Source: Verrucomicrobiota bacterium (GTDB lineage Bacteria; Verrucomicrobiota; Verrucomicrobiia; Limisphaerales; UBA8199). From it: a DNA stretch of 64,000 bases. Below are positions 8,828 to 58,063 of this stretch, piece by piece. The DNA is taken from the NCBI GenBank assembly GCA_035358715.1, contig DAOPPX010000001.1, forward strand, positions 274,412 to 338,411. Direction: 5' to 3'. A model generated the notes under the pieces. That model was given only the letters and a program-made list of their open reading frames with translations. It was not told the origin of the DNA and searched no databases. Position 1 is the first letter of the stretch, and each line of letters starts with the position of its first letter. The position numbers and the translations under genes were made by a program.

Positions 8828-8831
8828 TTGT

Positions 8832-43872: not shown

Positions 43873-43878
43873 ATCTCT

Positions 43879-43888
43879 CCATTATAGG
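43879..43888 (-). promoter_or_regulatory. -10-like motif copy CCTATAATGG
   Basis: Minus strand reads GGCCTATAATGG-AGAGAT-ATG(43872). TATAAT lies 8 nt from the start. Confidence 0.55.
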
Positions 43889-44083
43889 CCCGCTCTTGCG
43901 ATGACCAGGGCATCGGATGCTGGGTTTGACCGCTGCCTGGAGGAATTCGCTGTTCTTCATCCTGGCTTGGTCGTCCTCGGTTGATTCGCCCGCGCTGTCA
44001 CGTGTTGTCACTGACGCCCGCCAGCGTCGTAACGCAGGCTGCGGGCAAGGCACTCTCGAACCCTCAAAGGAATCGACGGCATC

Positions 44084-44368
44084 TCAACGGTGCCGGCGTG
44101 CTCGTTCTGAGATGAACCGCCTCAGTTGCGGGTGTTCCGCAGGGTCGCCGCTGAAAACGGCCTCACCTGTCACGCTCACCGTAAAATGGCCCTGATCGAT
44201 ATTGATGTAGGCTTCCCTTCCTTGGCTGTGCCTGAGGTAAAAATCGACCCCACACCTTGACTCTGGTCCTTCCTGGAATTCCCAGTCGCGGGCTCGCGTC
44301 CCATTCAGGACGGCCAACATCCCAGCCAAGTTCAGCCCCGTCATCTTGGCTCGTTGCTTACGGCTCAT
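44084..44368 (-). CDS. hypothetical small protein (94 aa from the ATG at 44368)
   Basis: ORF evidence only. Confidence 0.3.
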   Translation of the reverse strand: MSRKQRAKMTGLNLAGMLAVLNGTRARDWEFQEGPESRCGVDFYLRHSQGREAYINIDQGHFTVSVTGEAVFSGDPAEHPQLRRFISERARRHR

Positions 44369-44644
44369 GCTTTGCCTGTTTGGCCGTGAACTCCTGTCCG
44401 CATCCGCTACGCAGGCCCTCACGCGCGTCCAGTTTAGCGCAGGCGCAGCCATGTCACCCTCGGCACGGCGTTGCCGTGGGTGACGGCGACGATGAGTGAT
44501 CTGGAGTCCGGGCGGGCTCGCAGGTGAACGTGCCGATGGGGTGCTGCTTTGGCTCATGATCTACAGGGCCTGAGAATGGGTATGTCCCTGATGGGAATGC
44601 GTGTCTACAAACGGGTAACGCCTGAGCTGTGCGCCGTTTGGAGA

Positions 44645-44917
44645 TTAGCGCGCTCCCTGAAGCCGTGTTTGGATTTCCCGCTCGTATTCCGGGAAATAGC
44701 GCCCGATCACTGGCAAATCAAACGAAGGCAGGATCGAGGTATTCGGCTCGCGTTCTAGAAGAAACCGGATGCTCTCCTGGAGCAGTTCTTCGGCGGATCT
44801 GCCCCCAGCTAACCGTTCGACATCCTCTTTGGCCACCCGCACGCGATGATGGGTGGTAACGGTGCCCTTGATGCTCACCAGCCATTCGTCGCCCGCGGAA
44901 TGTTTAACTTCGATCAT
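44645..44917 (-). CDS. small conserved-looking hypothetical protein (90 aa)
   Basis: MIEVKHSAGDEWLVSIKG..HRVRVAKEDVERLAGG..ESIRFLLEREPNTSILPSFDLPVIGRYFPEYEREI. It resembles a widespread uncharacterised family I recall only vaguely. Confidence 0.5.
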   Translation of the reverse strand: MIEVKHSAGDEWLVSIKGTVTTHHRVRVAKEDVERLAGGRSAEELLQESIRFLLEREPNTSILPSFDLPVIGRYFPEYEREIQTRLQGAR

Positions 44918-45261
44918 GGCCAGTAAACTGGAATGACGGCATCGAATTTTCAAGCGGCACGCACGCCCGTATTGCCGACGGGGTGTTCGTTCGCGCCGAC
45001 AACACGCTGCGTATCACCAGGGGCCGATTCTGGAAGGCCGCGTCGCCCTCACCTGCAATTTCGGGAACCAAAAGACCACGCCGGGCACCGGCTACCATAT
45101 CTTGGCGATCACGACGAACGCGCCCGTACCCCATCAGCGGGGTAAGCCAACCAAGCCGCTGCCCAAGGAGCGAACCCGGTCTAAGGAAGCGCGGGTGCTC
45201 CGCTCCTAGGTCCCTGGTCACGCACTGCGGCGCTCAGAGGTAGAATGGGGTGCGGCCAAAC

Positions 45262-46911
45262 TCAGGACGAGCCAAGATTGAAATCTTCCAGCCTGACCCC
45301 AAAGTGCTCTTTGAAGCCGCGATCAGCCCATGGTCTGCAGAATTCAGCAGTATAGAGGGGGTGCATCCAGGTGAAATCGAGGTTGTAGGGCCCATCCTCG
45401 ATAATCCACTGCCTGATCAGGTCATACAGCAGGACCCAGTAGTAGAAGGAGTTGAACGTATCGTAGAGGTTCTTTTCTGAAGCCCCCTCGTAGAGCGCCG
45501 GGCGAATCTCGCCGTTGGGATGGACCAGAAACGGCGGCTGGTGCTTGTTAAAGATCCCGAGCGATTCCTGCAGGTTGACGTTGGCCCCCTTGCGCTCGGC
45601 GAGATACATCGCCGGCCAGCAAAAGAACTCCGGCCTGCGAACCCGCTGCTCGGCGAATCGGAGGTGCTTCGCAAAGCACACCCTGAGCGGCAGGTTCTCG
45701 TCTGAAAAACTGAAGGAGCTCTCCTGCTCCAGAAGTTCGGCAAAGCCGGGGGTCCGCGACGCCCACCTCATCAGCTCACTGGCGATTACCGCCGGCGTCT
45801 CGCAGGCGATCGACTTGCACAGGGCCGTGGCGATCTCCAGATACGCGTTCGCGTCGCATTTTTCGACTGCACCCCGCAAGGTCGGTTGCTGTGCTATTTG
45901 GGTGCAGAACCAGGAGAACCGTATACCCGGATCCACTGACTCTATGAGCGATTCAAAATGCCGGATGTCGAACGGGTAGCCATCGCTCGGATTTAGGGCC
46001 AGGTCGCAAACGAGGAGAAAGAGTAATACCTCTGCGGAAACCGGGGTCGCAGGCCACCCCCAGCCCGTGAGCCGCAGAAACTTCTCGAATGCTTCGACGT
46101 AAACCCCGCCGAGCATGCCCAGGCTCCGGAACTCGTTCCACGAGAGGTTGGGCGTCGTTGCGAGGTGGAGATACTGCAGTTGGCTGAATCGGGCCTGCCC
46201 CTCGAATATCTGATAAGCTCCGATGTCTGTGGTGCGGACCGTCGAGCCGTAGCAATACCCGTCCACGCGCCGGTCGCGCAAGTCGGCAGCAGGGTCCTCC
46301 CAGGACTTCGGGTGAGGGACGCACCCATGGTCGGGGTCAAACGTGGCCCCGAGCAGCAAGAGCAGGTTCGCCAGCCCGATAATGATAGAATGCCCCTGCG
46401 ATTCGAAGTAAGGGCTCCCCAATACGTCCGACAGGACCATAGGATTCATCAGGATGCGGCGGTTGAACTCCAGGTCGTACCAGTTGTTCACGATTCGGTT
46501 GAGGCAAGCCTCAACGTCGGTGCCATACCTCCGCGGAGGGCCTTGGGTTAGACACTTAACCGGCTTTTGTGGGCCGACGTTCTGCAGCGCGAATTGAAGG
46601 TGCTTGTAATTGATGTGGCACTGTATGGGGGGAGACAGGGAGAGGAGTAACCCCGTTGTGCTACCGATGTGCTGCCACCAATGCAGGGTCTCATGAAAGT
46701 AGGTCGAGAAGGCATCAACTAGGCCGTAATCCCGAGAGCTCGAGATCCCGCCCGGATGTTGCTCAAGCCGTTCGTGCATGTCTTGGCGCAGGCGCACCAC
46801 GAAACGGAACGGATGATAACTGCCACGGCTCCGGTTCGCGGAACTGCTATCAGGGACTGCCCATCCCAACCGTTCGGCGGATTGAAGGCCCTCACCCCTA
46901 GCCAGTTTCAT
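45262..46911 (-). CDS. large hypothetical protein with HExxH motif (549 aa)
   Basis: STYFHETLHWWQHIGSTTG (codons at about 46681-46695). No other family recognised. Confidence 0.7.
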   Translation of the reverse strand: MKLARGEGLQSAERLGWAVPDSSSANRSRGSYHPFRFVVRLRQDMHERLEQHPGGISSSRDYGLVDAFSTYFHETLHWWQHIGSTTGLLLSLSPPIQCHINYKHLQFALQNVGPQKPVKCLTQGPPRRYGTDVEACLNRIVNNWYDLEFNRRILMNPMVLSDVLGSPYFESQGHSIIIGLANLLLLLGATFDPDHGCVPHPKSWEDPAADLRDRRVDGYCYGSTVRTTDIGAYQIFEGQARFSQLQYLHLATTPNLSWNEFRSLGMLGGVYVEAFEKFLRLTGWGWPATPVSAEVLLFLLVCDLALNPSDGYPFDIRHFESLIESVDPGIRFSWFCTQIAQQPTLRGAVEKCDANAYLEIATALCKSIACETPAVIASELMRWASRTPGFAELLEQESSFSFSDENLPLRVCFAKHLRFAEQRVRRPEFFCWPAMYLAERKGANVNLQESLGIFNKHQPPFLVHPNGEIRPALYEGASEKNLYDTFNSFYYWVLLYDLIRQWIIEDGPYNLDFTWMHPLYTAEFCRPWADRGFKEHFGVRLEDFNLGSS

Positions 46912-46956
46912 TAGCTTTTGGAATAATCACAGTCGGTTCGCGCACGGTCGCAATTC

Positions 46957-47931
46957 TCAGGTTGTCGCCCGCTTCGCCCTGAGTTTTCCAATGCGCCCTT
47001 CCGACAAAACCGTGTCGTATCGGTGAATGAACTCCAACTGCTTCGCGAGGTTTCCAGAGTAGGTTTTCGTCCAGGGGCCCACCGCTTCGATGACCGCGTT
47101 ATAAAGGGCCTCGAAAGAGAACATTTTCGTCCCGCTACCCCCATCGACGCGAATTTTCTGGGAAGTGGGATCGAAATGGAAAGAAAGTGGAGGTGTCTTG
47201 CCCGCCAACACTTTTCGGGAGTGCGGGTTCGTCATGTGCAAAAGGGAATTCCTTAGCTCCCACAACTCATCCGGGGTCACGCCGACCGCAGCGAGGACCG
47301 CATACTTGGAAAGCCAGGTCACAAAGTTCCCCGCGACATCCCCGAGGTCCAGATAGGCCGCCGAATCAACGAAGGACATGAGGAGCTTCATCGCCGAAAC
47401 GTAATACCGGTGCGCGTAAAGAAGCTTGATGGCTTCGATAAAGTCGTCTCCGAGCAGATCGTCGACATTCAAGCCAGCCGGCGTGAGGTACGCAGACAGA
47501 TAATCGACCCTGCTTACGAGGCCACCAAATTGCCTCGAAAGCACCACCTGAGCAGACTGCGGATCAGCGCAAACCAAGTCCTCGTTCTGCGGCTTTCCGT
47601 CCACGATAATCGTGGTGCAAAATATCGGGTTCTGCGAGGCCTGAACGGCCTCCAGGGGTTCCGCAAAAATATGAAGGGGCTTCCCCGTTCGCGCTAGGTA
47701 CCAGTATGCCTCTAGGGGCAGGCCCTGCGTCGCCGCAATCCCGAGCCAAGCCTTGATATTGGCGACGGGAACGGGATAACGCGGCGCCTTGGTGAAATCT
47801 GCATCAACTCGGCTCTTCAGAGCCGCGATAATTTGGTCGTCGCTGCCCTCCAACTCATGTGCGACGACACCAAGCTCTTTGACGGTGTCGTTTTCCACAT
47901 ACAGGAACAGGTTGACGGCCCTTTCGCTCAT
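46957..47931 (-). CDS. protein with C-terminal HEPN-like domain (Rx4H motif)
   Basis: ELRNSLLHM (R..H codons at 47236-47253) preceded by long helices FIEAIKLLYAHRYYVSAMKLLMSFVDSAAYL. The open frame continues upstream to 48009. See the frameshift finding. Confidence 0.6.
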   Translation of the reverse strand: MSERAVNLFLYVENDTVKELGVVAHELEGSDDQIIAALKSRVDADFTKAPRYPVPVANIKAWLGIAATQGLPLEAYWYLARTGKPLHIFAEPLEAVQASQNPIFCTTIIVDGKPQNEDLVCADPQSAQVVLSRQFGGLVSRVDYLSAYLTPAGLNVDDLLGDDFIEAIKLLYAHRYYVSAMKLLMSFVDSAAYLDLGDVAGNFVTWLSKYAVLAAVGVTPDELWELRNSLLHMTNPHSRKVLAGKTPPLSFHFDPTSQKIRVDGGSGTKMFSFEALYNAVIEAVGPWTKTYSGNLAKQLEFIHRYDTVLSEGRIGKLRAKRATT

Positions 47932-47969
47932 GGAAGTAGTTAAGGGGACCGCCGAAAGTTCGGCAAGTG

Positions 47970-48164
47970 TCAACTGGGCCCTTTGGGAATGTAGCCAATA
48001 CTTCCCCAATAGGAGATGCCGCCTCTAATTCTCTCGACCTTTAGCAATTGTTCCCACTCCACCTGATCCACAGTTGAGATTCGTCCATTGACGAGTGTGT
48101 TGATAGCGGAATCCGCAACCATTGCGATTCCTGCTTCAGATAAATCTGCAAGTAATAAGGACAT
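47970..48164 (-). CDS. 64-aa ORF, possibly the displaced N-terminus of the HEPN-like gene
   Basis: ATG start, MSLLLADLSEAGIAMVADSAINT..GGISYWGSIGYIPKGPS*. It overlaps the 5' part of the downstream open frame by 40 nt in another frame. Confidence 0.35.
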   Translation of the reverse strand: MSLLLADLSEAGIAMVADSAINTLVNGRISTVDQVEWEQLLKVERIRGGISYWGSIGYIPKGPS

Positions 48165-48280
48165 ACAATTTGCCGCTTTCCGGTGACAAAAGCAAAAAAG
48201 CGTTGCGTCTCGGAGTCAAGAGCGCGATGAGCCGATACAGCTCAGGTCGCGGCCATTTTCGTGACCGATATTATACTACC

Positions 48281-48300
48281 GGCGGGGTATTATTCCCGCC
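48281..48300 (-). terminator. hairpin downstream of the caspase-helicase gene, followed by a TATAAT box (48270-48275, minus strand)
   Basis: GGCGGG-8 nt-CCCGCC. There is no U-tract, so the terminator function is uncertain. Confidence 0.3.
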
Positions 48301-48461
48301 AGTTTACGGGCTGAATTATGGGCATCGGAGAAGCATTTTACCAGGTCTGCAGGAACCTTGCCATCAGCAACAGGGCGTCGATCTCGGTATCGCCACAAGG
48401 GCATGTCCCACGAGCTTGAAAAATCGAAAAATCAACGTTCTCAAGCTACCACAGGCAACTT

Positions 48462-51400
48462 TCATTGAGGATCCGGCGGTGTCGGCATCGGCAAAGCATC
48501 ACTAAGTGCGGGCCTGGCTGCCTTAAGCTTGTCGATTGCGTGTCTCACAAGCTGCCTTTTCGCGTCACTATTTATAACACGAACAAACGCTTCATCATCA
48601 AGCCCCTCGAAAGCCTCCACCGTTGTTAAGCCCGCACGCTTGAGAGCCAGATAATCTCCACGCTCTAATCCCCGCTTCACCTGTCTTGCCAAGTAAATCA
48701 TGTCACTGTGAATACCCAATTCCAGCCGCGTATTGAGATCATCAAGCTCACAGCTCGATCCGCGACCGTCGCTCGAAACCAGCGTACCGATCCGAGCTAC
48801 GACCTCGATGAGATCGCGGGTGCGCTCAGCTGAAGCGCGAATCGGACCGGCGGCATTATCTGCTGGCAGATGCTGCAGGAGCGAAGCCTCCATACGATTT
48901 AGTTCAACCCCTTCAATCCACATCAAAACCGCGGAGAGGCGCTTGCATCGTGCCGTATGGCTCGGATCGTCGGTCGCCGCAAATTCCACAAGAAGCGAAT
49001 AGGGCAAGCGTTGCTCCTGGATCGCCCCCTGCCACCGCTGACGTTCCTTAATCGATTTCTTATGAACGGGGAAAATGACGTCGTCCAACTCCACCGTCAC
49101 CTGTGCAGCCGCGAGGAGGACTCTTTCAACAAGCTCAGCGCTGGGCAGACCACGGAGCGCTCGTGCGACTCGTGTCACGCTTTCCACTTGGATACCAAGC
49201 TCACCGGCCACTTTACCGAGCTGAGTCAGCCGATAGCGGCCTTCGACTTGCTCCACAAGCCCCGCTCCACCTAACTGCGCGACCGCGCTTGAGATTGCCT
49301 GAACACTGAAGGCCTGGCCCTGCTGGTGGTGCGCGAATGTCGATTGGATGAAATCGACGAGCTCCTGCTCGGAAAGACTATTCACCTTCGAGGCACTTGC
49401 GGTCGCGAGCACTCGGCAAATAAGGGAGAGGGGATCATGGTCCGAAAAGCGCGAGACCAGCGCCTCAGGTTTTCCCGCCACATAGTTCGTCCACAGCTGG
49501 TAAGCATCGGACGGGGTCGGAGCAATCAAGAAGGATTTGCCTTTCGGCGTAAAGCCAAGCCGGCCGGCGCGCCCAACCATGTTTTTGTATTCGGCCACGC
49601 TATACGGCGAGTCAGGATGCTCCAGGCCAGCAATCACCACCGACCAGGCCGGAGTATTGACCCCCATGGCAAGCGTCGTCGTCGCCACCAGCACTTTGAG
49701 AGAGCTGTTCGGATCCCTGAACGTGGCCTCGATTGCTTGTCGTTCTTCGCGGTCAAGATCCGCATTATGGAAGGCAACACCGTGCTGCAAACATCCGCGC
49801 AACTGCGTCGAGGCGACAGATGGATCACCTGCGGGGAGTTGAGCCAAGGTTTCGGTCGCCGCATGAAGGCCTAAACTGTTCTTCAAATATTCCGCAGTTG
49901 CTCGGACAATCGGTTTCGTTTCTCGAAACACGATGACCTTCTCCCCCGCGCCTACAAGCTGCCGCACCAACGGGATGATGATGTCTTGCGATGTGCCCTT
50001 GCGGAATTCCGGGCGCACGTAATTATTGAGCTGCTGCTCTGTGCCATCTGCCGCGATGTAACGGAACGTCCCGCTCATATCGAGCAGACCCTCTTCCAGC
50101 GGAACCGGGCGTTTCTCACTGCGCAACAGCCGGGCATCCAGCCAGGACTCAAAACCGTTGGTGTCCCCGATAACGGCGGAAAGCGCGATTATCTGCGGTT
50201 CGACACCCAACATTCTTTGCGACTTCAATAGCGTGAGCAGAAATTCAAGATTGGCTCCGCGGTTCAGGTCCGTGATCATCTGCACTTCGTCGACCACCAC
50301 GACGCCAACCTGGCGCATGATATGTGGTGCGACCAGCGCGAGCGCAGCAAACCGTTCGTACGTCAGCAACGCGATATCGAACTTACCACGGAGCAGCGCA
50401 TTGTTGTCGTCGGAAATCTCGCCGGTAGATCGGATGATACGCACACCGAACGGCCCATATTTTGACGTGAACTCAGCGTACTTATCGTTCACGAGCGCCC
50501 GCAGCGGCAACAGTATGTAGCTGCGTTCCCCTTTCAGGTTACGGTACAACGCTGCCAATTCGCCGATCATCGTCTTTCCCGATGACGTTGGCGCAGACAC
50601 AACGAGATGCTGACCTTCAAACAAGCCCGCCTTGTTGATGGCCTCCTGCTGCAATTCGTTGAGGGACGGAATCGCACCACTCCAAATACCGATCAATGGC
50701 TGGGGAAACCCAAATCCGGTAAGATCCTTGATGTTCGAGCTGACGGAAATTGGAGCTGGGTCGGGGAAAAACCGTCTAAAAATCGCGCCTGGGATCAACA
50801 CTGGAAACAGCAACTCGCCTTCAATCACGCCCTTTACGGTTGGCTCTTGTTCGTGGCGAATCTGACGAGCGGCGTTTACCACCGACCGGGTCACGAACTC
50901 AATCAATGATAAGAGCGGAATCTTGCCAGCCTTGACGATTTCCGGGGCACCTTTGAACGCCTGACATATAAAGAAGGTAAACAAGCTGTGCCCGCGGCGC
51001 CGATCTTCCATTGCTTCCTGCTTCGCTGTGGCAGCGGTGAAAATGAGGCGTCCCTTGCCGCTAATCTTACTCAGCAAGGCATCCGCCGAAGCCGTATCCT
51101 TCGTGGCCGTAGGAGCATGGAAGACCTTGGCGCCAGCCCCCCCGGCGAAGCAACAGTCCAAGAGGAGCACGAGATTTGACACGGGAATACGCGAAAAAAG
51201 ATTCGTGAGTTCATCCAGATGAATTGTGGTTGAATCGAGTGCGAGCGGGTCGGCTTCGTGTGAGATGAGGTGATGGGAGTCCGAGCCATGGCCAGAAAAC
51301 CCAATCACAACGATATCATCCGGTTTTGCTTCTTGAAGCTCCACAAGTGCCTTGAGAATCGCCGATTTGGTAGCCTGCTCGTTTGTAAGAAGAACGGATT

Positions 51401-51527
51401 CCGAGCTGCCAAATGCGTCACAAAAAAGTCCGTGGAGTGCCTGGGCGTCGCGAACCGAACACGAGAGGTTTGAAATTAGCGGGGATCGATACCGATCAAT
51501 GCCGATGAATAGGCTTTTGAATGACAT
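48462..51527 (-). CDS. caspase-like (peptidase C14) domain fused to a Hel308/Ski2-type DEAD/DEAH helicase
   Basis: From ATG 51527. Caspase His/Cys dyad IGFSGHG (His80) and LLLDCCFAGG (Cys125/126). Helicase motifs VVSAPTSSGKT, VVVDEVQMI, LVATTTLAMGVNTPA, MVGRAGRLG. C-terminal WH/ratchet/HhH-like region. An alternative TTG start at 51566 lies 1 nt after the ImmA stop. Confidence 0.85.
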   Translation of the reverse strand: MSFKSLFIGIDRYRSPLISNLSCSVRDAQALHGLFCDAFGSSESVLLTNEQATKSAILKALVELQEAKPDDIVVIGFSGHGSDSHHLISHEADPLALDSTTIHLDELTNLFSRIPVSNLVLLLDCCFAGGAGAKVFHAPTATKDTASADALLSKISGKGRLIFTAATAKQEAMEDRRRGHSLFTFFICQAFKGAPEIVKAGKIPLLSLIEFVTRSVVNAARQIRHEQEPTVKGVIEGELLFPVLIPGAIFRRFFPDPAPISVSSNIKDLTGFGFPQPLIGIWSGAIPSLNELQQEAINKAGLFEGQHLVVSAPTSSGKTMIGELAALYRNLKGERSYILLPLRALVNDKYAEFTSKYGPFGVRIIRSTGEISDDNNALLRGKFDIALLTYERFAALALVAPHIMRQVGVVVVDEVQMITDLNRGANLEFLLTLLKSQRMLGVEPQIIALSAVIGDTNGFESWLDARLLRSEKRPVPLEEGLLDMSGTFRYIAADGTEQQLNNYVRPEFRKGTSQDIIIPLVRQLVGAGEKVIVFRETKPIVRATAEYLKNSLGLHAATETLAQLPAGDPSVASTQLRGCLQHGVAFHNADLDREERQAIEATFRDPNSSLKVLVATTTLAMGVNTPAWSVVIAGLEHPDSPYSVAEYKNMVGRAGRLGFTPKGKSFLIAPTPSDAYQLWTNYVAGKPEALVSRFSDHDPLSLICRVLATASASKVNSLSEQELVDFIQSTFAHHQQGQAFSVQAISSAVAQLGGAGLVEQVEGRYRLTQLGKVAGELGIQVESVTRVARALRGLPSAELVERVLLAAAQVTVELDDVIFPVHKKSIKERQRWQGAIQEQRLPYSLLVEFAATDDPSHTARCKRLSAVLMWIEGVELNRMEASLLQHLPADNAAGPIRASAERTRDLIEVVARIGTLVSSDGRGSSCELDDLNTRLELGIHSDMIYLARQVKRGLERGDYLALKRAGLTTVEAFEGLDDEAFVRVINSDAKRQLVRHAIDKLKAARPALSDALPMPTPPDPQ

Positions 51528-51567
51528 TTGTCGCTGCTGATTCTCGTGGGGTTTGCAGAAATTCAAG

Positions 51568-52503
51568 TCAGATTGCGATGACGGGCACCGTTACAGCCCG
51601 TTTCCCAAGGTGCCTTGCAAATGTGAGGGCTTCATGGCCGTTGAAAAAGGTTTCAAAGGCGAAGACGTGCTCGTCTCCATTGTCATCGGCTAGAACGATC
51701 TCGCTTTCGCCCAAGGGCCCACCTCTTTGAGATCCACAGTATGAAACGATGCAGTCGAAAATCTCGTGCTCGCTCGCTTGGCCGAACCGAGCGGCGAAAG
51801 CCTCGGATTGAATAAAATGACGACAGGGATTCGCCCCATCGAAATCGTCTGGCCGGCGACGGATGTGAGGATGGTCGGAAATGACGCCTAACAGGGGTTG
51901 CTCGGAACCGAGAAGCTCAACTGCGCGCCAGAGGGTGCAAGTTTGGGTGTTACCAAAGGATTTCGCATACTTTTGCAGAGTCCGAAAACCCAGCGGCGAA
52001 CTCCGAGCCTCCTCGACGAATCGGTCGCGCAGAAAAATTAGCTGACCGGCACCATAGTTGGCTTCAGTTTCGATTTTCGCCCGACAGGAGGCGGTTGGGG
52101 TTATCTCATTGTCGCCCAGCAGGACTGGGTGGTGCCAGAGGAGCAATTGGTGGATGGTTTCGTGTGCCTCAAGCCAGCGATGTTTCAGTTTAGGCACCTC
52201 CTCGTCGATCAGAATGCGTTTCAGATCCGGAGCACACAGCGCGCGGAGCTTAAATTTCTGTATGGCTTCGCGGATGAACATCGGACGGGCAAAGGATTGC
52301 ATCACGCCGACGCGGATCTTGTGGACAGCACGCGCCAGCAGACCGGCCTCTTCACGTTGAAAGTAGCCAAGATCAATTTTCAGCCAGTCACGCACCACCT
52401 CAATCCGAAGAGGCGGCTCCGGGCGACCAATATCATCGAGAAGGCGATCTACTCGGCGATCGATTTTCTGGCGGACGTGTGAAGCAAGAATGAGGCTTTT
52501 CAT
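51568..52503 (-). CDS. ImmA/IrrE-family (COG2856) zinc metallopeptidase
   Basis: HETIHQLLLWH (HExxH) and downstream ETEANYGAGQLIFL. ATGA overlap with the XRE gene. Confidence 0.85.
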   Translation of the reverse strand: MKSLILASHVRQKIDRRVDRLLDDIGRPEPPLRIEVVRDWLKIDLGYFQREEAGLLARAVHKIRVGVMQSFARPMFIREAIQKFKLRALCAPDLKRILIDEEVPKLKHRWLEAHETIHQLLLWHHPVLLGDNEITPTASCRAKIETEANYGAGQLIFLRDRFVEEARSSPLGFRTLQKYAKSFGNTQTCTLWRAVELLGSEQPLLGVISDHPHIRRRPDDFDGANPCRHFIQSEAFAARFGQASEHEIFDCIVSYCGSQRGGPLGESEIVLADDNGDEHVFAFETFFNGHEALTFARHLGKRAVTVPVIAI

Positions 52504-52979
52504 TCCTTGCCACGTTCATCGTCCAGGAGCGTGGCGATATAAGCCTCGAGCGCGTGCTGCTCTTCTGGGGAAAGCGGCCCGGTCGGTTTCGCATCGGTGG
52601 CAAAGCGGACAGCCTCTTTGTTTAGGGGAAGCTTTTTAGCAACGGCAAGACCGGCAGCCTGCATCATCTTTGTAACTGAAAGGCCAAAAACCTGAGCTAG
52701 CCCGTAGACCGTGCTCGGTTCGGGTTCGTGGTATGGGTCGTCTTCGATAGCTTGCAGTTCCTCGGTTGCCGCTTCAGCTCGTGCTGCGAGTTGTTCGATT
52801 GAAAGCCCCAGTTTCCTGCGTAACAGGAGGACAAGTCTTCCAAATGTGAGGTGGGTGAATACCGAGATCATCGGCGTGGCAGACTGAATGGCGGTGGGCG
52901 GACTGCCCGCACCAACTTCGCAGTCGCCTTCCAGTTTGGCTGCGCGGATGAACCAATCTTTGGGCAGGTTCAGTTTCAT
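52500..52979 (-). CDS. XRE-family helix-turn-helix regulator
   Basis: FGRLVLLLRRKLGLSIEQLAARAEAATEELQAIEDD..VYGLAQVFGLSV. ATGA overlap with the GNAT gene. Confidence 0.8.
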   Translation of the reverse strand: MKLNLPKDWFIRAAKLEGDCEVGAGSPPTAIQSATPMISVFTHLTFGRLVLLLRRKLGLSIEQLAARAEAATEELQAIEDDPYHEPEPSTVYGLAQVFGLSVTKMMQAAGLAVAKKLPLNKEAVRFATDAKPTGPLSPEEQHALEAYIATLLDDERGKE

Positions 52980-53578
52980 TTTGTCAGAGGTTTTGCGAGA
53001 AAGGCGTTTGCCTGCTCGCTGGTGAATTCATAATACGTTAGATTCTGTTTCTGTGGGTCGGGTCCGATGATTGTCATGCCGCAGTTCTTCTCATAAAATC
53101 TCCTTGCACCTGGGAGGGAGTGCAGGCCGATTCGCCCTTTGAAGCCCTCGTCGATGCTGAGCTGCACGGCAGCCGCTATTAATGTTCCGCCAACCGCCTT
53201 AAACCGCTTTGGTGTCTGAATCGCAGAACGATTCCAAGGGGCGACGGCAAGATAATCCACATACAGGACTGAACGGGTGCCTTTGTTGGAGAGGCTTGCA
53301 AGATCAACGAGCATGGCGCCCTGGAGGCCGCCTTCGCAGGTAATGCAAAAACCGCGCTGGCCAAACGTCTGATGCGCGTGAGAAAGTTTATCCCGCCAAT
53401 TCCAGTGCCAATCTTCCGGCCACCTGTCTCGCGGCGTGGTGCGCTTCACTTGCTCAACGACCGGCGCCCAGGTTGCTTCTAGTTGCTCCAAGTGCGGTTT
53501 GTCCAGGTCGTCCAGGAGCACTGCTTCGACGAGCGATTCGTCAGCGCCGCGGACGAGGTAAATGACTGACGCTTCCAT
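52976..53578 (-). CDS. GNAT-family acetyltransferase (toxin-like partner of the RHH gene)
   Basis: VLYVDYLAVAPWNR..RFKAVGGTLIAAAVQLSIDEGFKGRIGLHSLPGARRFYEKNCGM. This shows the GNAT beta4-alpha3 / AcCoA-loop pattern. Confidence 0.7.
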   Translation of the reverse strand: MEASVIYLVRGADESLVEAVLLDDLDKPHLEQLEATWAPVVEQVKRTTPRDRWPEDWHWNWRDKLSHAHQTFGQRGFCITCEGGLQGAMLVDLASLSNKGTRSVLYVDYLAVAPWNRSAIQTPKRFKAVGGTLIAAAVQLSIDEGFKGRIGLHSLPGARRFYEKNCGMTIIGPDPQKQNLTYYEFTSEQANAFLAKPLTK

Positions 53579-53582
53579 GGTT

Positions 53583-53795
53583 TCAGACGAGCATGAGCTC
53601 AGACTTAACTTTATTCACGTCGTCTTCGATGAAGAGCTTTTTCCCCTCGCGCATTCGCTGATCCACTAATTGGTAGAGGCGCAGGGCTTGTCGGATAATC
53701 GCGGTCTTGTTCAGATCCTTTTGGCCAGCGAGTGCCTCCAGCGCATCCATCTCAGCGTCGGTCAGGTTCAGTGTCATGGTGCGTTTAGTACTCAT
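53583..53795 (-). CDS. ribbon-helix-helix (CopG/Arc-type) protein
   Basis: MTLNLTDAEMDALEALAGQKDLNKTAIIRQALRLYQ gives a beta-strand plus two helices. 70 aa, 4 nt upstream of the GNAT gene. Confidence 0.75.
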   Translation of the reverse strand: MSTKRTMTLNLTDAEMDALEALAGQKDLNKTAIIRQALRLYQLVDQRMREGKKLFIEDDVNKVKSELMLV

Positions 53796-53805
53796 ATCTC
53801 AACAC

Positions 53806-53835
53806 AAAATAGCCACAAAACATATATGCAGTCAA
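53806..53835 (-). promoter_or_regulatory. sigma70-like promoter candidate for the RHH-led operon
   Basis: Minus strand reads TTGACT-18 nt-TATTTT, 10 nt before the ATG at 53795. The intergenic region is AT-rich. Confidence 0.4.
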
Positions 53836-53853
53836 CATATTTTAATTAAATAT

Positions 53854-53882
53854 TTGACGCATGGCCATTATTGGTATATTCT
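53854..53882 (+). promoter_or_regulatory. sigma70-like promoter candidate for the Bil-type operon
   Basis: TTGACG-15 nt-TATATT (or 17 nt-TATTCT), ending 8-10 nt before the ATG at 53890. Confidence 0.4.
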
Positions 53883-53889
53883 GTGGCCA

Positions 53890-54174
53890 ATGAATACATA
53901 TTCATCAATTACTGAGGGCCACGGCAGCGCCGTGGCGGAACCTGACAACAACGCTGGCCAGAAGTTCTTCGTGAACATCGAAGGCCAGGAATATCCGTGG
54001 GATAAACCCACGATCACCGTCCCGGAAATCCGGCAGCTGGGGAATCTCCCCGCCGACCAGCCGGTAATTGAAGAGGACGCGGAAGGCCGTGAGCGCACGC
54101 TCGCGGAAAACGAAGTGGTAACCATTAAACCCGGCCATCGACACGGCCGCGCACCTAAGTACAAGCGGGGTTAG
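53890..54174 (+). CDS. bilA: ubiquitin-like (multiubiquitin/beta-grasp) protein ending in Gly
   Basis: From the internal ATG: KFFVNIEGQEYPWDKPTITVPEIRQLGNLP..LAENEVVTIKPGHRHGRAPKYKRG*. A C-terminal Gly is immediately followed by the stop codon. Confidence 0.75.
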   Translation: MNTYSSITEGHGSAVAEPDNNAGQKFFVNIEGQEYPWDKPTITVPEIRQLGNLPADQPVIEEDAEGRERTLAENEVVTIKPGHRHGRAPKYKRG

Positions 54175-54176
54175 CT

Positions 54177-54587
54177 ATGCACGAGCGGGTTCGAGAAGAA
54201 ACCGAGTGGCTTAGAGCGCAATTCCCCTACTTGCGGCATGGGGACCAGCTTGACTGGGTCTTAATCCCGGAGCTGGCCCTCCCGCCAGGGCGATTCAATA
54301 AGGTGAGCACCAAGCTGCTGTTCCGAATCCCGGTAGGCTACCCACAGACCGGCCCGGACAACTTTTTTGTGGATGGTGACCTGCGGCTTAAGGACGGTTC
54401 GACTCCGCAGGCGTTCAATGTTGGGCCCCAATCGAGCAGTGGTCCTGCGCCAATCGAAGGAAGTTGGGGCTGGTTTTCATGGCATCCTCAGGCTTGGCGT
54501 CCAGCAGCGACGATCGAAGGTGGCGATAATCTCAAAGGGTTCATTCGGAGTATTAACCTCTGTTTGCGCGGAGAGGAGTCGGCATGA
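54177..54587 (+). CDS. bilB: prokaryotic E2-like protein (E2 family E-like)
   Basis: LLFRIPVGYPQTGPDNFFVD..GSWGWFSWHP. Position between the Ubl and JAB genes. The protein has a single Cys (INLCLRG). Confidence 0.65.
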   Translation: MHERVREETEWLRAQFPYLRHGDQLDWVLIPELALPPGRFNKVSTKLLFRIPVGYPQTGPDNFFVDGDLRLKDGSTPQAFNVGPQSSSGPAPIEGSWGWFSWHPQAWRPAATIEGGDNLKGFIRSINLCLRGEESA

Positions 54588-55132
54588 ACAATCACATTGT
54601 CATCCCTTCCCGCATGGTCCAAGCGTTGAGGGAACACTTCTTCAAGAACGAGCTTGAGCAGGGAGCGTTCTTATTCGCCCAAGTGTCGCAAGAGGGCGTG
54701 GATTTGACTCTCTTGGCTGCCGATTACTATCTGGTTCCTGCACGAGGCTGGGCAGTGCAAATGGAGGTTTACCTGGAAATGAGGGATTCCGAACGCGGCA
54801 AGATCATGAAGTTGGCCCGGGAAAAGAATCTGTGCGCGATTGACTGCCACTCACACCCGCACGCGGGTGACGATGTGTGGTTCTCGCCAAGTGACGTCGT
54901 CGGCATCAGCGATTTTGCGGAGTACGCAAAGTGGAAACTCGACCGCAAGCCTTTCGCGGCGATGGTCTGGGGCGAGGAGTCGGTAGACGCGGTCCTGTGG
55001 CATGGAGATTTCACATCTGCTGAACGGGTAAGGGCCGTGACGGTTGCTGGAAACCCGAATCAGACAATTATCCCAACGGGCTCATGGTTTTGTGGGCCGA
55101 GGGGGAAAAACAGATTTAAATATTATGAATAA
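54584..55132 (+). CDS. bilC: JAB/MPN (JAMM) metalloisopeptidase
   Basis: ELEQGAFLFA (Glu) and CHSHPHAGDDVWFSPSD (HxH..SxxD). ATGA overlap with the E2 gene. Confidence 0.85.
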   Translation: MNNHIVIPSRMVQALREHFFKNELEQGAFLFAQVSQEGVDLTLLAADYYLVPARGWAVQMEVYLEMRDSERGKIMKLAREKNLCAIDCHSHPHAGDDVWFSPSDVVGISDFAEYAKWKLDRKPFAAMVWGEESVDAVLWHGDFTSAERVRAVTVAGNPNQTIIPTGSWFCGPRGKNRFKYYE

Positions 55133-56003
55133 CAGTCGTTTCGCTCGGCAAGTCCTCATGTTTGGTGAGGAAGGACAGAGAAAAATTGAAACAGAAAGGG
55201 TCGGGGTAGTCGGCGCGGGCGGGCTTGGCTCTCAAATGGGCCAGGCGCTCGCGTATGCTGGCGTCCTTAACTATGGCGTAATTGACGACGACGTTCTCGA
55301 CGAAACCAACATGAACCGGGAGGCTGGCGGTTTTCCATCCGATGTCGGCCGTCTCAAAGTTGAGGTCGTGAGAGAACACATCCTCAAGATTATCCCCGAA
55401 GCAAAAGTGAAAGCGATTCCATGCAATCTCAGGACGCGGGAGGCAATTGAGTGTCTGATCGGATGCTCGGCGATTTTTGGATGCCTTGATCACGATGGGC
55501 CTCGGTTGGTGCTAACGGAGCTCGCATCAGCTTACCGGGTTCCGCTTTTCGATGTGGCGACCGAAATTTTTCCGGAAATGGCCGGGCAACCCTTCGACTT
55601 TGGTGGACGTGTCGTCGTGGCAAGGCCGGGAGATTATTGTCTCCTTTGTGCCGACCAACTAGACCGTGATCTCGCGAAGGAGGAGTTGGAAACACCTGAA
55701 ATACGTGCCGCTCGTCTGAAACATGGATACGGGCTCGGGAGTGAAACGCCTGCCCCGGCGGTTTTCACTCTGAATGGGGTTCTCGCGAATCTCGCGGTGA
55801 TGGAGTTCTTGGTGATGGTAACAGGTATCCGGGAGCCCGCCCGCCGGCTGACGTATAAGGGAATGCGAGGCGTGGTGACAAACAGCACCGATCGGGGCAG
55901 GGAAGACTGCTTCACCTGCAAGTGCCTCTGTGGGCAGCGCGAAAAAGCGAACATCTGGCGCTATTTGCTGCCACAGGCAGCCGGGAGGAGTCTGACAGAG
56001 TGA
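55125..56003 (+). CDS. bilD: ThiF/MoeB-type E1-like adenylating enzyme
   Basis: From ATG 55125: RFARQVLMFGEEGQRKIETERVGVVGAGGLGSQMGQALAYAGV..GVIDDDVLDETNMNR. Cys pairs CLLC and CFTCKC. 8-nt overlap with the JAB gene. Confidence 0.85.
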   Translation: MNNSRFARQVLMFGEEGQRKIETERVGVVGAGGLGSQMGQALAYAGVLNYGVIDDDVLDETNMNREAGGFPSDVGRLKVEVVREHILKIIPEAKVKAIPCNLRTREAIECLIGCSAIFGCLDHDGPRLVLTELASAYRVPLFDVATEIFPEMAGQPFDFGGRVVVARPGDYCLLCADQLDRDLAKEELETPEIRAARLKHGYGLGSETPAPAVFTLNGVLANLAVMEFLVMVTGIREPARRLTYKGMRGVVTNSTDRGREDCFTCKCLCGQREKANIWRYLLPQAAGRSLTE

Positions 56004-56078
56004 GAGGTGGCCAGCCCACCGCTTGTTCCACGAAGAAATGGAATCAGCGTCTGGAATCCGTTCGTCTTGCACCGGAAA

Positions 56079-56291
56079 CTAATCGAGACCTTTCAGGTGC
56101 GTGGCTAGTGCGTTGGGACGAGGTAATCGAGCAGTGCGGATGTGCCGCGATTTGCATACTTGTCCAGTCAGGAGGCAGGCCTGAATCTTAGCAGACCATT
56201 GGAGAAGGGGCATAACCTGGGTTACCCGGGCCCTCGAGATTCCTTCCCAGGCAGCGATTCTGGCCTTCGTCAGCCGGGTACCGGATCGCAA
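56079..56291 (-). pseudogene. fragment of a small HTH DNA-binding gene
   Basis: TKARIAAWEGISRARVTQVMPLLQWSAKIQ resembles the ..EGISRARVTQ..LL.L.P.IQ.. HTH proteins often found near recombinases (recalled from memory). The N-terminus appears to be missing. Confidence 0.3.
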
Positions 56292-56305
56292 TCCTGCCTG
56301 CGTGG

Positions 56306-56508
56306 ATGAGATTTGCCGGGAAGCTGCTGCCCGTATCTTATGTGTTCGAAGGGCTGAGAGCGCTTATCGCCGGGGGCGCCGTACCCGGAACCTCGGCTTG
56401 GGCCTGGCCGTGGCGTATGTGCTTTTGGCGTGTTGGTTCTTCACACGCGTTAATCGAAACGCCGTCCGAACCGTCCTCGCGCGCAATAGCGCCGAGAACC
56501 TGAGCTGA
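56306..56508 (+). pseudogene. frameshifted C-terminal remnant of an ABC-2-type transporter permease
   Basis: Frame 1 reads KLLPVSYVFEGLRALIAGG. After a shift near 56390 frame 2 reads LGLGLAVAYVLLACWFFTRV. No upstream part of the gene is present. Confidence 0.35.
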
Positions 56509-56646
56509 GCCCGGACAGTTGCTTTGATGTCGGCCTGGGATCAGCGACTTCGCCTGCCTCGACTGCTTTGACATGCCCCCAACTGGTTTGAATGTGTGAT
56601 GCACAGAGCTTTGGTTTAATATCCCGGTTCGATACATCGTCGCGAA

Positions 56647-57126
56647 ATGAAGAAAACTGAATTGATAAAGCACATTATCGGCAGCCTGACCAAAAGTCTC
56701 GAGGTTCTGGAAAAGGCCGCCCGAGCCTCGCATGAGGAAGCCACCCACGAGAGCAGCAGGGCGGAGAGCAAGTACGACACTCGCGGGCTCGAAGCTGCCT
56801 ATCTCGCCGGCGGTCAGGCCAGACAAGCGAAGGAAATCCTGGACTCCATCAAGGCTTACGAAGCGCTAGCGACCAGGGACTTCGCCCCCGGCGAGCCGAT
56901 TGAGTTGACCGCCCTGGTGGAACTGGATGCCGAAGGCATACATTCAGCCTATTTTATCGGGCCGAGGAACGGCGGCTTGGAAATCAAGCATCGGCGTAAG
57001 GAGATCATGGTGATCACGCCTCAGTCGCCGCTGGGTCAAACCTTAATAGGCAGGAAAGCGGGCCAGCGTTGGGCGGCCAAGCTTGGCGGTTCGACCGTGA
57101 AATATCATATTGTCTCGGTTTCGTGA
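56647..57126 (+). CDS. GreA/GreB-family-like protein (coiled-coil N-domain plus Gre C-terminal-like domain)
   Basis: ESKYDTRGLEAAYLAGGQARQ in the N-terminal hairpin. C-terminal VITPQSPLGQTLIGRKAGQ..VKYHIVSV. Confidence 0.7.
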   Translation: MKKTELIKHIIGSLTKSLEVLEKAARASHEEATHESSRAESKYDTRGLEAAYLAGGQARQAKEILDSIKAYEALATRDFAPGEPIELTALVELDAEGIHSAYFIGPRNGGLEIKHRRKEIMVITPQSPLGQTLIGRKAGQRWAAKLGGSTVKYHIVSVS

Positions 57127-57457
57127 TTAGCCCGCCGCATCGACTAACGCAAAGGTGGCGCGGGTCGCGTAAAACCATGCGCGAGTCAGCGGCGAGGGCG
57201 AGGAATTTGGTTGAGGGTGCTGGCGGTGCACCCGTTTGGCTACCGACCGCCGCGCGGCGGCGGCGCGCGAGATTTGGACCGGACCATTGTTGATCTTAAA
57301 CCACGAGCTTGAACGACCAATGAACTTCACGAGCCACCTGACACGGTCTGAACGCATTGAGAGAATTGGGCAGATTTTGGCGAAGGGCGTAGGCCTCCTT
57401 CTGGCGAGGAAAGCACAGGAAGAAAGACTCGCTGAATCACCTGCCTCAACCCGTGCT

Positions 57458-57557
57458 GCCGATCGGTCGCCTTGCGCTCGGTGACATCCGTGTCGGCGCC
57501 GCGGTAGCCGAGGAGTTTCCCGGCTGGATCCACCACCGGGCTGCCGCTCGGCTCCCC
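57458..57557 (-). pseudogene. about 35-aa remnant of a PAS-domain sensor gene
   Basis: GEPSGSPVVDPAGKLLGYRGADTDVTERKA is the typical end of a PAS domain (..G..G...DITERK). No kinase or output domain follows. Confidence 0.3.
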
Positions 57558-57655
57558 GGGAGGTGGTGCGCGAATCAATCAAACGAAGTGGCCTCTTATG
57601 GTCAGCGCAATCGAATCGGCGTTTCGATTCCTGTCCGCCTTTGCTCAGGGATCCG

Positions 57656-57991
57656 CTATTTGGCGGCCCAGGTAATAATCACCTCCACGATCTTGGGAAC
57701 CAGGAACAGCATAACGGAGCCGCCGAGGTTTTTGCCCATGGCTTCCATGTCGCCTGACTTGAATTTGAGCGCGGCTATACCCATAAATATGATCCCCAAA
57801 AGGTAAAATATGTACAGGGCGTAATGAGTCACGGTGTAAAGCGTGCTCGTTAAGCCCGAACTTTCGTTGGCCGCATCGTTGAAGTTGTCCACGGTCAATC
57901 CACCAGAGGTCTGAGCCAGAGCCAGATGGGGGGTGACCAGTAGCAGAAAGGCGAACAATCCAATCAGAAGTTTTGGCGCCAAGGTTTTCAT
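57656..57991 (-). CDS. VirB2/TrbC-like T4SS pilin
   Basis: From ATG 57991: signal MKTLAPKLLIGLFAFLLLVTPHLALAQ, then two hydrophobic helices separated by KFKSGDMEAMGKN. 111 aa. Confidence 0.55.
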   Translation of the reverse strand: MKTLAPKLLIGLFAFLLLVTPHLALAQTSGGLTVDNFNDAANESSGLTSTLYTVTHYALYIFYLLGIIFMGIAALKFKSGDMEAMGKNLGGSVMLFLVPKIVEVIITWAAK

Positions 57992-58053
57992 ATTGATTTC
58001 GTGCATGCGTTGCTTTGTATTCCGGCCTTCGATAGAGCAAGGCCTGTCTTCTT

Positions 58054-58063
58054 CCATTGTAGG
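58054..58063 (-). promoter_or_regulatory. -10-like motif copy CCTACAATGG
   Basis: Sense orientation, 64 nt upstream of the virB2-like ATG. Confidence 0.45.

Follow-up and report, generated by a model that had tools for sequence, protein, structure and literature searches.

A probable acquired segment with Bub-like and caspase-helicase cargo in a variable interval of a large pilus/VirB4-type element

The window considered here is a stretch of 64,000 nucleotides (nt) of contig DAOPPX010000001.1 (assembly GCA_035358715.1), assigned to a Verrucomicrobiota bacterium. A preliminary description, made from the letters alone, proposed that the interval from 43,889 to 57,655 is a defence or cargo island without a recognisable mobility gene, set between two genes of a type IV secretion system (T4SS). 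In this study we delimit that island against related elements, describe its cargo and weigh how it came to lie within a pilus- and secretion-type gene cluster of a large element. The left flank is a conserved backbone gene on the minus strand (41329-43872) for a VirB4/TraC-like ATPase of 847 amino acids (aa) that matches the Pfam families P-loop_TraG, AAA_10 and TraC_F_IV; the right flank, also on the minus strand (57656-58006), encodes a conserved backbone membrane protein of 116 aa. The former (hereafter TraC) is a T4SS-type gene as proposed, but the latter has no family match, its pilin-like membrane topology being apparent by eye. Upstream of TraC and on the same strand stands a small conserved backbone gene of ~90-100 aa (44084-44390; its open reading frame, ORF, reaches 44557), which immediately precedes TraC in most close relatives (tblastn identity 51-90%, in the same position in loci L006, L008-L017, L027-L035 and L053) and is not island cargo. 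It is followed by a 90-aa gene, again on the minus strand (44645-44917), which is called on the source contigs, has no family match and is 86-94% identical in L029 and L009, being common to these two relatives only. The segment specific to the window excludes this gene and extends from 44,969 to 57,651 (12,683 bp), as given by blastn and by aligning the junctions with the sequences of L029 and L009.

ORF listing and profile searches place the gene blocks of the island where the preliminary description had put them, and the gene calls of public contigs with the exact sequence agree, leaving 56004-56646 and 57127-57655 empty. The island is a mosaic of four parts: an eight-gene cassette composed of a regulator block and an operon for conjugation of a ubiquitin-like protein (Ubl), a gene for a caspase-Hel308 helicase fusion, two unrelated orphan genes and a Gre-like factor.

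The boundaries of the segment are well defined by the relatives. Where the window has 12.7 kb, the closest relatives have a spacer of ~125 nt (alignment with L029 and L009). The right junction is exact, the homology of the relatives ending at 57,651-57,655, just past the stop codon of the 116-aa gene, and the left junction lies at ~44,969-44,985 in the nucleotide alignment against the closest relative, L029, so that alignment to related elements yields both empty sites and junctions and moves the left edge of the island as first drawn. The exchange of a spacer for 12.7 kb is a replacement rather than a clean insertion with target duplication. The claim that the island lacks an integrase, a transposase and flanking repeats is borne out: no integrase, transposase or recombinase domain was found by Pfam in any island or debris ORF, and flanking direct or inverted repeats occur only at chance level (≤17 nt). 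Neither the window nor the island contains a tRNA or an Rfam RNA (Rfam at gathering and E ≤ 1 thresholds), and the only tandem repeats are trivial ones. Composition also sets the segment apart from the backbone, in GC content at third codon positions (GC3; 0.642 in the island vs 0.728 in the backbone) and in tetranucleotide distance (0.0156-0.0213 for island windows vs 0.0099-0.0141 for every backbone window). At least 15 contigs, assembled independently and drawn from different samples, carry the island, and some of them cross both junctions; those that span the junctions include L055 (92 kb) and L001/L002 (168 and 349 kb), which differ in sample and assembler. Twelve contigs encode exactly this TraC protein, and the longest of those shown measure 168 and 349 kb.

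Homologues of TraC with 63-97% identity, at about 40 metagenomic loci, define a family of related elements. Their gene order is a 725-aa gene, a pilin-like 109-aa gene, a 100-aa gene, the 116-aa membrane protein, the variable interval, the gene of ~90 aa and TraC. Both flanks are visible in 14 relatives, to which the following counts refer. The site is empty in nine of them (L006, L007, L014, L024, L025, L026, L032, L034 and L036), with homologues of the 116-aa gene immediately preceding TraC or the small gene; L014 shares its sample with one of the window's own contigs. L029, whose TraC is 97% identical, has solely the 90-aa gene that matches 44645-44917, and the other four (L009, L021, L031 and L053) carry unrelated cargo. 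In no fewer than eight additional loci the DNA upstream of TraC likewise holds unrelated cargo. No island gene is common to the cargo of any of these relatives. With nine of the 14 relatives empty at the position and the others holding unrelated cargo or the 90-aa gene only, the island is not core content.

In the relatives, cargo occupies no fewer than three adjacent slots: ahead of the 90-aa gene, between it and the conserved gene of ~90 aa, and between the conserved gene and TraC (the last in L009 and L053). In L006 the counterparts of the 100-aa and 116-aa genes enclose a second variable slot (6738-9172), one gene further from TraC, which contains a helix-turn-helix (HTH) gene, a response-regulator/HDOD protein and two small ORFs. 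In L009 the 90-aa gene (1892-2240) is accompanied, 1.2 kb away, by an 80-nt partial copy of its 5' end (3379-3458; 92% identity), which may be a trace of recombination inside the hotspot. The larger cargo proteins of the relatives comprise an nSTAND5 NTPase, NERD-NACHT, HATPase_c_3 and Fic proteins, Sel1 and HEAT repeat proteins and an AraC-WCX regulator, and a PADLOC scan of 49 ORFs of cargo at the site gave matches to mad2, mad8, SoFic, PDC-S04, REase_II, OloA and WYL, with MADS-like and restriction-like genes thus among the cargo. These defence-type profile matches indicate that the interval acts as a defence-type hotspot across the family.

The cassette has two arms that diverge from a shared promoter region. 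The rightward arm (plus strand) encodes a Ubl of 94 aa with one beta-grasp domain that ends in ...KYKRG (53890-54174; Pfam Multi_ubiq), an E2-like protein of 136 aa of the Prok-E2_E (6E/Bub) family (54177-54587; 45.8 bits vs a Pfam cut-off of 25), a JAB/JAMM peptidase of 182 aa recognised by its motif HSHPH...SPSD (54584-55132) and an E1-like adenylyltransferase of 281 aa with a single ThiF domain (55158-56003; Pfam E = 1e-33). This operon had been described as Bil-type, an assignment that does not hold: for E1, JAB and E2 alike, the best matches are Bub proteins. The best match of the E1 in the PDB is the E1 domain of Citrobacter BubCD (phmmer E = 2e-16), with Tyr191 of its GYG motif aligned to Y370 of BubCD (chain residue 372) and its Cys residues confined to the zinc-type motifs CLLC and CFTC; the sole credible PDB match of the JAB peptidase is the JAB domain of the same protein (E = 1e-3). 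The only PDB profile match of the E2 is Citrobacter BubB, a weak one (E = 0.02) whose aligned stretch ends before the motif S101-W-H103. This motif and Cys129 are invariant in an alignment of four homologues, and the presence of the invariant Cys129 leaves thioester chemistry open. The E2 has no similarity to BilB of E. aridi (hhalign probability 0.1%). Cys129 lies in the sequence NLCLRG near the C-terminus, and the sole columns that hhalign pairs with BilB place it against LCMAG, which contains the catalytic C138, without significance. Searches of all island ORFs gave no match to BubE/DUF6527 (PF20137); no gene is called after the E1, and none of the loci L070-L075 has a DUF6527 protein listed beside the E1. 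The E1 family has 411 matches, and among the matches listed almost all are ~270-300 aa long, which indicates that they are unfused. The same four-gene operon adjoins BREX in L073, and in L075 it adjoins an M78 and HTH gene pair, an MmeI-type enzyme and a recombinase.

The leftward arm (minus strand) begins with a ribbon-helix-helix (RHH) DNA-binding protein of the CopG type (70 aa; 53583-53795; Pfam RHH_1 E = 1.4e-5), followed by a 200-aa protein (52976-53578), a CapH-like repressor of 159 aa with an XRE-family HTH domain, the start and stop of whose gene overlap its neighbours (52500-52979; Pfam HTH_19 and HTH_3), and a CapP-like zinc metallopeptidase of the ImmA/IrrE type (311 aa, HETIH114; 51568-52503; PADLOC capP E = 4e-9). 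The 200-aa protein had been taken for an acetyltransferase of the GNAT type (Gcn5-related N-acetyltransferase). It has no sequence-family match or GNAT signature in Pfam or NCBIfam, and the reading can be kept only tentatively, as a hint from Foldseek: with a low-confidence model of the protein (predicted local distance difference test, pLDDT, 45), 45 of the top 50 PDB matches are GNAT-family acetyltransferases, TacT2 and AtaT among them, which makes GNAT identity plausible. Between the two arms lies an AT-rich divergent promoter region (53796-53889) with promoter-like sites on both strands and an operator-like palindrome, GTCAA-N18-TTGAC (53826-53860), which overlaps the predicted -35 element of the Ubl operon promoter and has perfect 9-nt arms in L070 (6697-6732); either the XRE or the RHH protein may bind it.

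L070-L072 contain the complete set of eight genes, in unrelated surroundings and with no caspase-helicase, at identities of 39-83% (RHH 79%, 200-aa protein 41-44%, XRE 39%, CapP-like 53%, Ubl-E2-JAB-E1 69-83%) and in the same layout, with the RHH, 200-aa, XRE and CapP-like genes divergent from Ubl-E2-JAB-E1. The neighbours there are housekeeping-type genes (IGPS, a tRNA synthetase), a NurA/HerA-type pair and an SNF2 helicase. Judged by this sequence conservation, the RHH, GNAT-like, CapH and CapP genes form one conserved eight-gene cassette with the Ubl operon. This layout fits the occurrence of CapH and CapP in 31% of Bub operons (10.1101/2024.11.21.623953). CapP, a peptidase activated by ssDNA, cleaves the repressor CapH, and the pair responds to DNA damage in general (PMC13228613). 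In the window, as in the CapH and CapP pair of Lau et al. (2022) to the extent that it is cited in PMC13228613, an XRE-type HTH gene precedes an ImmA/IrrE-type HExxH metallopeptidase gene and the pair faces away from an immune-type operon across a common promoter region that contains a palindrome; unlike the pair as cited there, the window has RHH and GNAT-like genes before capH and a large effector gene after capP. The small RHH gene directly before a ~200-aa protein with a GNAT-like, low-confidence model also recalls the type II toxin-antitoxins of the RHH-GNAT type (TacAT, AtaRT and KacAT), from which the pair differs in being part of a longer operon with CapH and CapP that is conserved with the Ubl cassette.

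Bacterial Ubl systems provide two points of reference. As described in the literature on Bub, the E1s of Bil systems are multidomain proteins (IAD-AAD-CYS), and Bub operons have fused genes (BubAB/BubCD or BubBD) and always include BubE/DUF6527 (10.1101/2024.11.21.623953; 10.1101/2024.11.21.623966; 10.1101/2023.09.26.559546). The operon of the window resembles Type I Bub (6E.1; Ye et al., 10.1101/2024.11.21.623953) in its E2 of the Prok-E2_E family with Ser-x-His at 101-103, S101 and H103 matching in position BubB S333 and H335 (BubB residues 104 and 106), in its single-adenylation-domain E1 with a Tyr at the position of BubCD Y370, in a JAB closest to that of BubCD, in the gene order Ubl-E2-JAB-E1 and in its association with CapH and CapP. 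It differs from Type I Bub in having four separate genes instead of the BubAB and BubCD fusions, a Ubl made already ending in Gly, no BubE/DUF6527 serine protease, an E2 with an extra invariant C-terminal Cys129 and an RHH and GNAT-like pair in the conserved cassette. With Type I/II Bil (BilABCD) it shares four separate genes arranged as Ubl, E2, JAB and E1, the single beta-grasp Ubl and defence-related neighbours; whereas a catalytic Cys and several domains (IAD-AAD-CYS) characterise the Bil E1 and the Bil E2 is of the CEHH/6C type, the window has an E1 of 281 aa with one adenylation domain and an E2 of the 6E family. By these sequence comparisons Bub (6E) is the nearest system to the operon, which departs from it in its unfused genes and its lack of BubE.

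Beyond capP, on the minus strand, lies the gene for the caspase-helicase (48462-51527), a protein of 1021 aa in which Peptidase_C14 is fused to a Hel308/Ski2-like helicase of superfamily 2 (Pfam Peptidase_C14 and DEAD/Helicase_C). NCBIfam assigns residues 286-997 to a Hel308-type helicase and the protease to the "caspase, EACC1-associated type", and PADLOC matches the fusion to HamB, PDC-M23B and caspase profiles. The catalytic motifs are intact (SGHG91, DCCFAGG137 and DEVQ426). The family has more than 1,400 homologues, the closest outside the strain's own contigs being 75% identical and from Acidobacteriota. The gene begins 40 nt downstream of capP with no terminator-like site in the gap and may be co-transcribed with it. 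The preliminary description treated the RHH, GNAT, XRE, ImmA and caspase::helicase genes as one operon; they are contiguous, but comprise two units of separate origin, as the cassette of L070-L072 lacks the caspase-helicase. In five other contexts the caspase-helicase is solitary, and four of these are neighbourhoods of the mobile or defence type; it is therefore an independent module. Its neighbours in these contexts are Dnd-like genes with a serine recombinase; an integrase, IS21 and an MmeI-type enzyme; DUF499 and DUF1156; a DDE transposase; and hypothetical genes. In one genome (L081, 8001-19072) a homologue lies directly upstream of a DUF499 ... DUF1156 set, and in another (L080, 13638-16187) the surroundings of one include an MmeI-type methyltransferase/endonuclease together with IS21 and integrase fragments.

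The fusion resembles HamB of Hachiman and other Ski2/Hel308-like defence helicases in its helicase core, which matches the HamB and PDC-M23B profiles, and the caspase domain, by its matches to the EACC1-associated type and the PADLOC caspase and by its mobile and defence neighbourhoods, resembles caspase-like effectors such as those of type IV Thoeris and the EACC1-associated caspases. Unlike in Hachiman and Thoeris, helicase and protease are joined in one polypeptide, with no HamA, TIR or other partner; in particular, no HamA (DUF1837) nuclease gene lies beside the caspase-helicase. Hachiman and type IV Thoeris were rejected as identities on account of the absent partner genes, and a conserved nine-gene system of Ubl operon and caspase-helicase was rejected as well, the fusion being solitary in five contexts and missing from the L070-L072 cassette. 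A literature search for a caspase-Hel308 defence gene found nothing relevant.

The left part of the island holds two orphan genes on the minus strand. One encodes a 549-aa protein (45262-46911) with the HExxH motif HETLH at residue 73 and no Pfam, NCBIfam or PADLOC match, with 379 representative homologues of ~545 aa; the other encodes a 324-aa protein (46957-47931), without a family match, which has an Rx4H, HEPN-like motif, RNSLLH, at residue 253 of a 350-aa ORF. RNSLLH253 lies in a predicted helical region, a single-sequence AlphaFold model being unusable (pLDDT 37). The two genes had been described as a HEPN-motif gene paired with an HExxH gene; both motifs are present, but the genes are not a conserved pair, since their homologues are on different plasmids, and a two-gene HExxH/HEPN system was rejected for the same reason. 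Plasmid homologues of the 549-aa protein lie in accessory contexts, with no homologue of the 324-aa protein alongside at the two loci checked, and those of the 324-aa protein lie near Abi, relaxase and insertion sequence (IS) genes, on plasmids other than those with 549-aa homologues. The 530 nt between the Rx4H gene and the caspase-helicase (47932-48461) contain at most a doubtful gene call of 50-64 aa, have no Rfam match and no obvious remnant, and fall in the part of the island with the lowest GC content (0.52 for 48001-49000).

To the right of the cassette a Gre-factor-like protein of 159 aa is encoded on the plus strand (56647-57126). Only its C-terminal GreA/B domain is recognisable, in Pfam just below the cut-off (GreA_GreB, E = 9e-6) and in NCBIfam as a greA domain (E = 9e-5), in agreement with its earlier naming as a Gre-like factor. 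On either side lies gene-free debris, at 56004-56646, where no gene is called on the source contigs, and at the right edge (57127-57655), with no gene called and no Pfam match. Three gene remnants had been seen here. One, a ParB-type HTH fragment on the minus strand (56079-56291), has weak tool support (HTH_ParB, E = 0.0017, below threshold), and the other two, a possible frameshifted C-terminus of an ABC-2 permease on the plus strand (56302-56508) and a minus-strand ORF whose translation has the PAS-end-like pattern "...GYRGADTDVTERK" (57327-57578), are matters of sequence pattern alone: neither fragment matches anything in Pfam at E ≤ 5, and the reconstructed ABC-2 fragment has no plasmid match by tblastn.

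The flanking genes bring promoters of their own. A backbone promoter box, CTATAATGGA, lies on the minus strand 6 nt upstream of the TraC start codon (43878-43887), and the 116-aa gene has its own at 58053-58062. A search of the intergenic regions for shared 9-mers did not detect the box, and its consensus, CTAYAMTGKR, was derived from the upstream regions. The window has eight copies where 0.32 are expected, all of them on the minus strand (15741, 18011, 31244, 33288, 36728, 43878, 58053 and 62605) and often ~5-50 nt from a start codon, and a TAYAAT-type box is kept upstream of TraC in nearly all relatives. Judging by this motif and spacing, the backbone box looks like a -10 element with very short or absent leaders. 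It does not occur between 43,888 and 58,052, which agrees with the earlier observation that the island genes lack the backbone promoter box. With boxes on both sides and none inside, the variable interval is the border of two independently promoted units, and this plausibly accounts for the tolerance of the site to cargo.

The backbone itself encodes a divergent DnaN, a family-A polymerase with exonuclease and uracil-DNA glycosylase (UDG)-like regions, DinG-like and SNF2-like helicases, an SMC/SbcC-like ATPase, a secretin, PilB/PilT-type ATPases, pilin-like proteins and a VirB4-like ATPase, with a gene for RNase HII further along (in the source contigs and relatives) and many proteins without a family match. 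The polymerase (37412-40840; 1128-1142 aa) has a weak match to the UDG superfamily in its N-terminal 220 residues, before the 3'-5' exonuclease domain. Backbone contigs of 168-604 kb come from many metagenomes (relatives including L006, L007, L013, L014 and L053), and one 3-kb contig is binned as Terracidiphilus (Acidobacteriota). A megablast search of the flanks against 72,556 plasmids gave no match. A scan of IMG/VR with the TraC alignment found no relative, which argues that the backbone is not a catalogued virus, and a comparison of ten backbone proteins with PHROGs returned DNA-metabolism families only and no structural genes, which leaves a phage identity unsupported.

Known defence hotspots between conserved core genes include sites in P2/P4 prophages, in integrative and conjugative elements (ICEs) of the SXT type and in the Pseudomonas core genome. 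The interval described here resembles the P2/P4 prophage hotspots, the variable regions of SXT ICEs and the Pseudomonas core defence hotspots in its fixed position between conserved syntenic genes, its states from empty to ~13 kb, its unrelated defence-type cargo in different relatives, its deviant composition and its cargo without a dedicated mobility gene. It differs from them in its host element, which is found on contigs of 168-604 kb and is absent from the plasmid and IMG/VR collections, and in its location inside a pilus/secretion-type gene cluster, between two units with short-leader promoter boxes and with several adjacent slots.

We consider it likely that 44,969-57,651 is a horizontally acquired accessory segment, in a multi-slot hotspot of a large pilus/VirB4-type element, with mosaic cargo and turnover of the recombination type. 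The site would tolerate cargo because it is a unit border with promoters on each side, so that inserted DNA interrupts nothing. Turnover would most likely proceed by homologous recombination between related elements through the conserved flanking genes, a route that we infer from the absence of a mobility gene and of att-like repeats and from the replaced spacer, and older cargo would decay into the debris at 56.0-56.6 kb and 57.1-57.7 kb. As to how the cargo might act, the literature on CapH/CapP and Bub suggests the following sequence. CapH would repress both divergent promoters until ssDNA arising from phage infection or DNA damage activates CapP, which would then cleave CapH and de-repress both operons. 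The Ubl, with its free C-terminal Gly, would be adenylated by the E1, handed to the E2 and conjugated to a target, a chemistry that may involve Tyr and Ser oxyester intermediates as in Bub, with Cys129 keeping a thioester open, and the JAB peptidase would reverse or edit the conjugates. The caspase-helicase, probably co-transcribed, would be a separate sensor-effector, in which engagement of the helicase on foreign nucleic acid licenses the protease.

The reading of the interval as a defence island is supported by the comparison with the relatives and by composition, and several observations weigh against it or its parts. PADLOC profiles match components in the island (CapP, a HamB-like/PDC-M23B helicase, a caspase and a Cap2-type E1 domain) but recognise no complete named defence system in it, so that the expectation of defence calls holds for single components only. 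Anti-phage activity has been demonstrated for neither Bub, the cassette nor the caspase-helicase. The assignments of the GNAT-like and the HEPN-like proteins are weak, co-transcription of the caspase-helicase with capP is drawn solely from the 40-nt spacing and the missing terminator-like site, and the case for the recombination route consists solely of the absence of alternatives. Within the 64 kb there is no sign of a relaxase, replicon or capsid gene. The gene for the 549-aa protein has a backbone-like GC3 of 0.74, which implies that the cargo need not all be equally recent.

The segment could instead be a decayed self-mobile element, an integrative element or transposon that has lost its integrase or transposase and its ends. 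The debris at the right edge and within the island, including a ParB-type HTH fragment that would fit a partition or plasmid-like origin, is what such a decay would leave, and homologues of the modules elsewhere adjoin recombinases, IS elements and integrases. Against this stand the lack of any recombinase or transposase domain or fragment in frame-called ORFs, the lack of terminal direct or inverted repeats, a spacer that was replaced without target duplication, modules that travel separately elsewhere and the many different cargos in the same interval of the relatives, and we regard this origin as unlikely. That the region belongs to the ancestral core and was deleted in the relatives, or that it is an assembly chimera, is an explanation to which we give hardly any credence: its only support is that every contig of the exact strain carries the region, whereas relatives at 75-97% TraC identity are without it, several having unrelated genes in its place, the composition is unlike that of the backbone and the junctions are spanned by contigs of different samples and assemblers.

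A further alternative concerns the function of the cargo, not its origin: rather than in immunity, the genes might serve protein modification in response to DNA damage or stress, together with the regulators and the Gre-like factor, for the physiology of the element or its host. The role of Bub is unproven, being given by the authors as "antiphage immunity or stress response" (10.1101/2024.11.21.623953), CapH and CapP respond to DNA damage in general (PMC13228613) and the L070-L072 cassette lies among housekeeping-type genes (IGPS and a tRNA synthetase). The same cassette, however, is also flanked there by the NurA/HerA-type pair and the SNF2 helicase, the four-gene operon stands elsewhere beside BREX and restriction-modification (RM)-type genes, the neighbours of the caspase-helicase are Dnd-like, RM and IS genes and the cargo of the hotspot in relatives has defence-type profile matches, so that a purely physiological role appears improbable to us. 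Returning to the defence-type accessory segment, we advance only as a tentative possibility, one that we would sooner doubt than assert, a more specific proposal: that the eight-gene cassette is a third Bub-like type, unfused and BubE-less, with a mature Ubl, Tyr and Ser-His oxyester residues plus an E2 Cys and a toxin-like acetyltransferase, whose DNA-damage switch has captured the caspase-Hel308 as a single-gene abortive-infection effector.

The hotspot itself is an ordinary one, and the cassette probably an undescribed Bub-like variant. For the element family, which is of very large size and comes from peat, wetland and wastewater metagenomes, the site is cleanly delimited by an empty state, exact junctions and a dozen alternative cargos, and could be mined for candidate immunity genes. 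The caspase-Hel308 fusion represents a widespread candidate effector family, whose members occupy mobile and defence neighbourhoods in Acidobacteriota, Myxococcota, Planctomycetota and other groups. The unfused, BubE-less relative of Bub, with ~400 E1 homologues and a cassette linkage to CapH/CapP and the RHH/GNAT-like pair, is a possible bridge between Bub and Bil, and this family may help to show how the two are related and whether oxyester chemistry is general.

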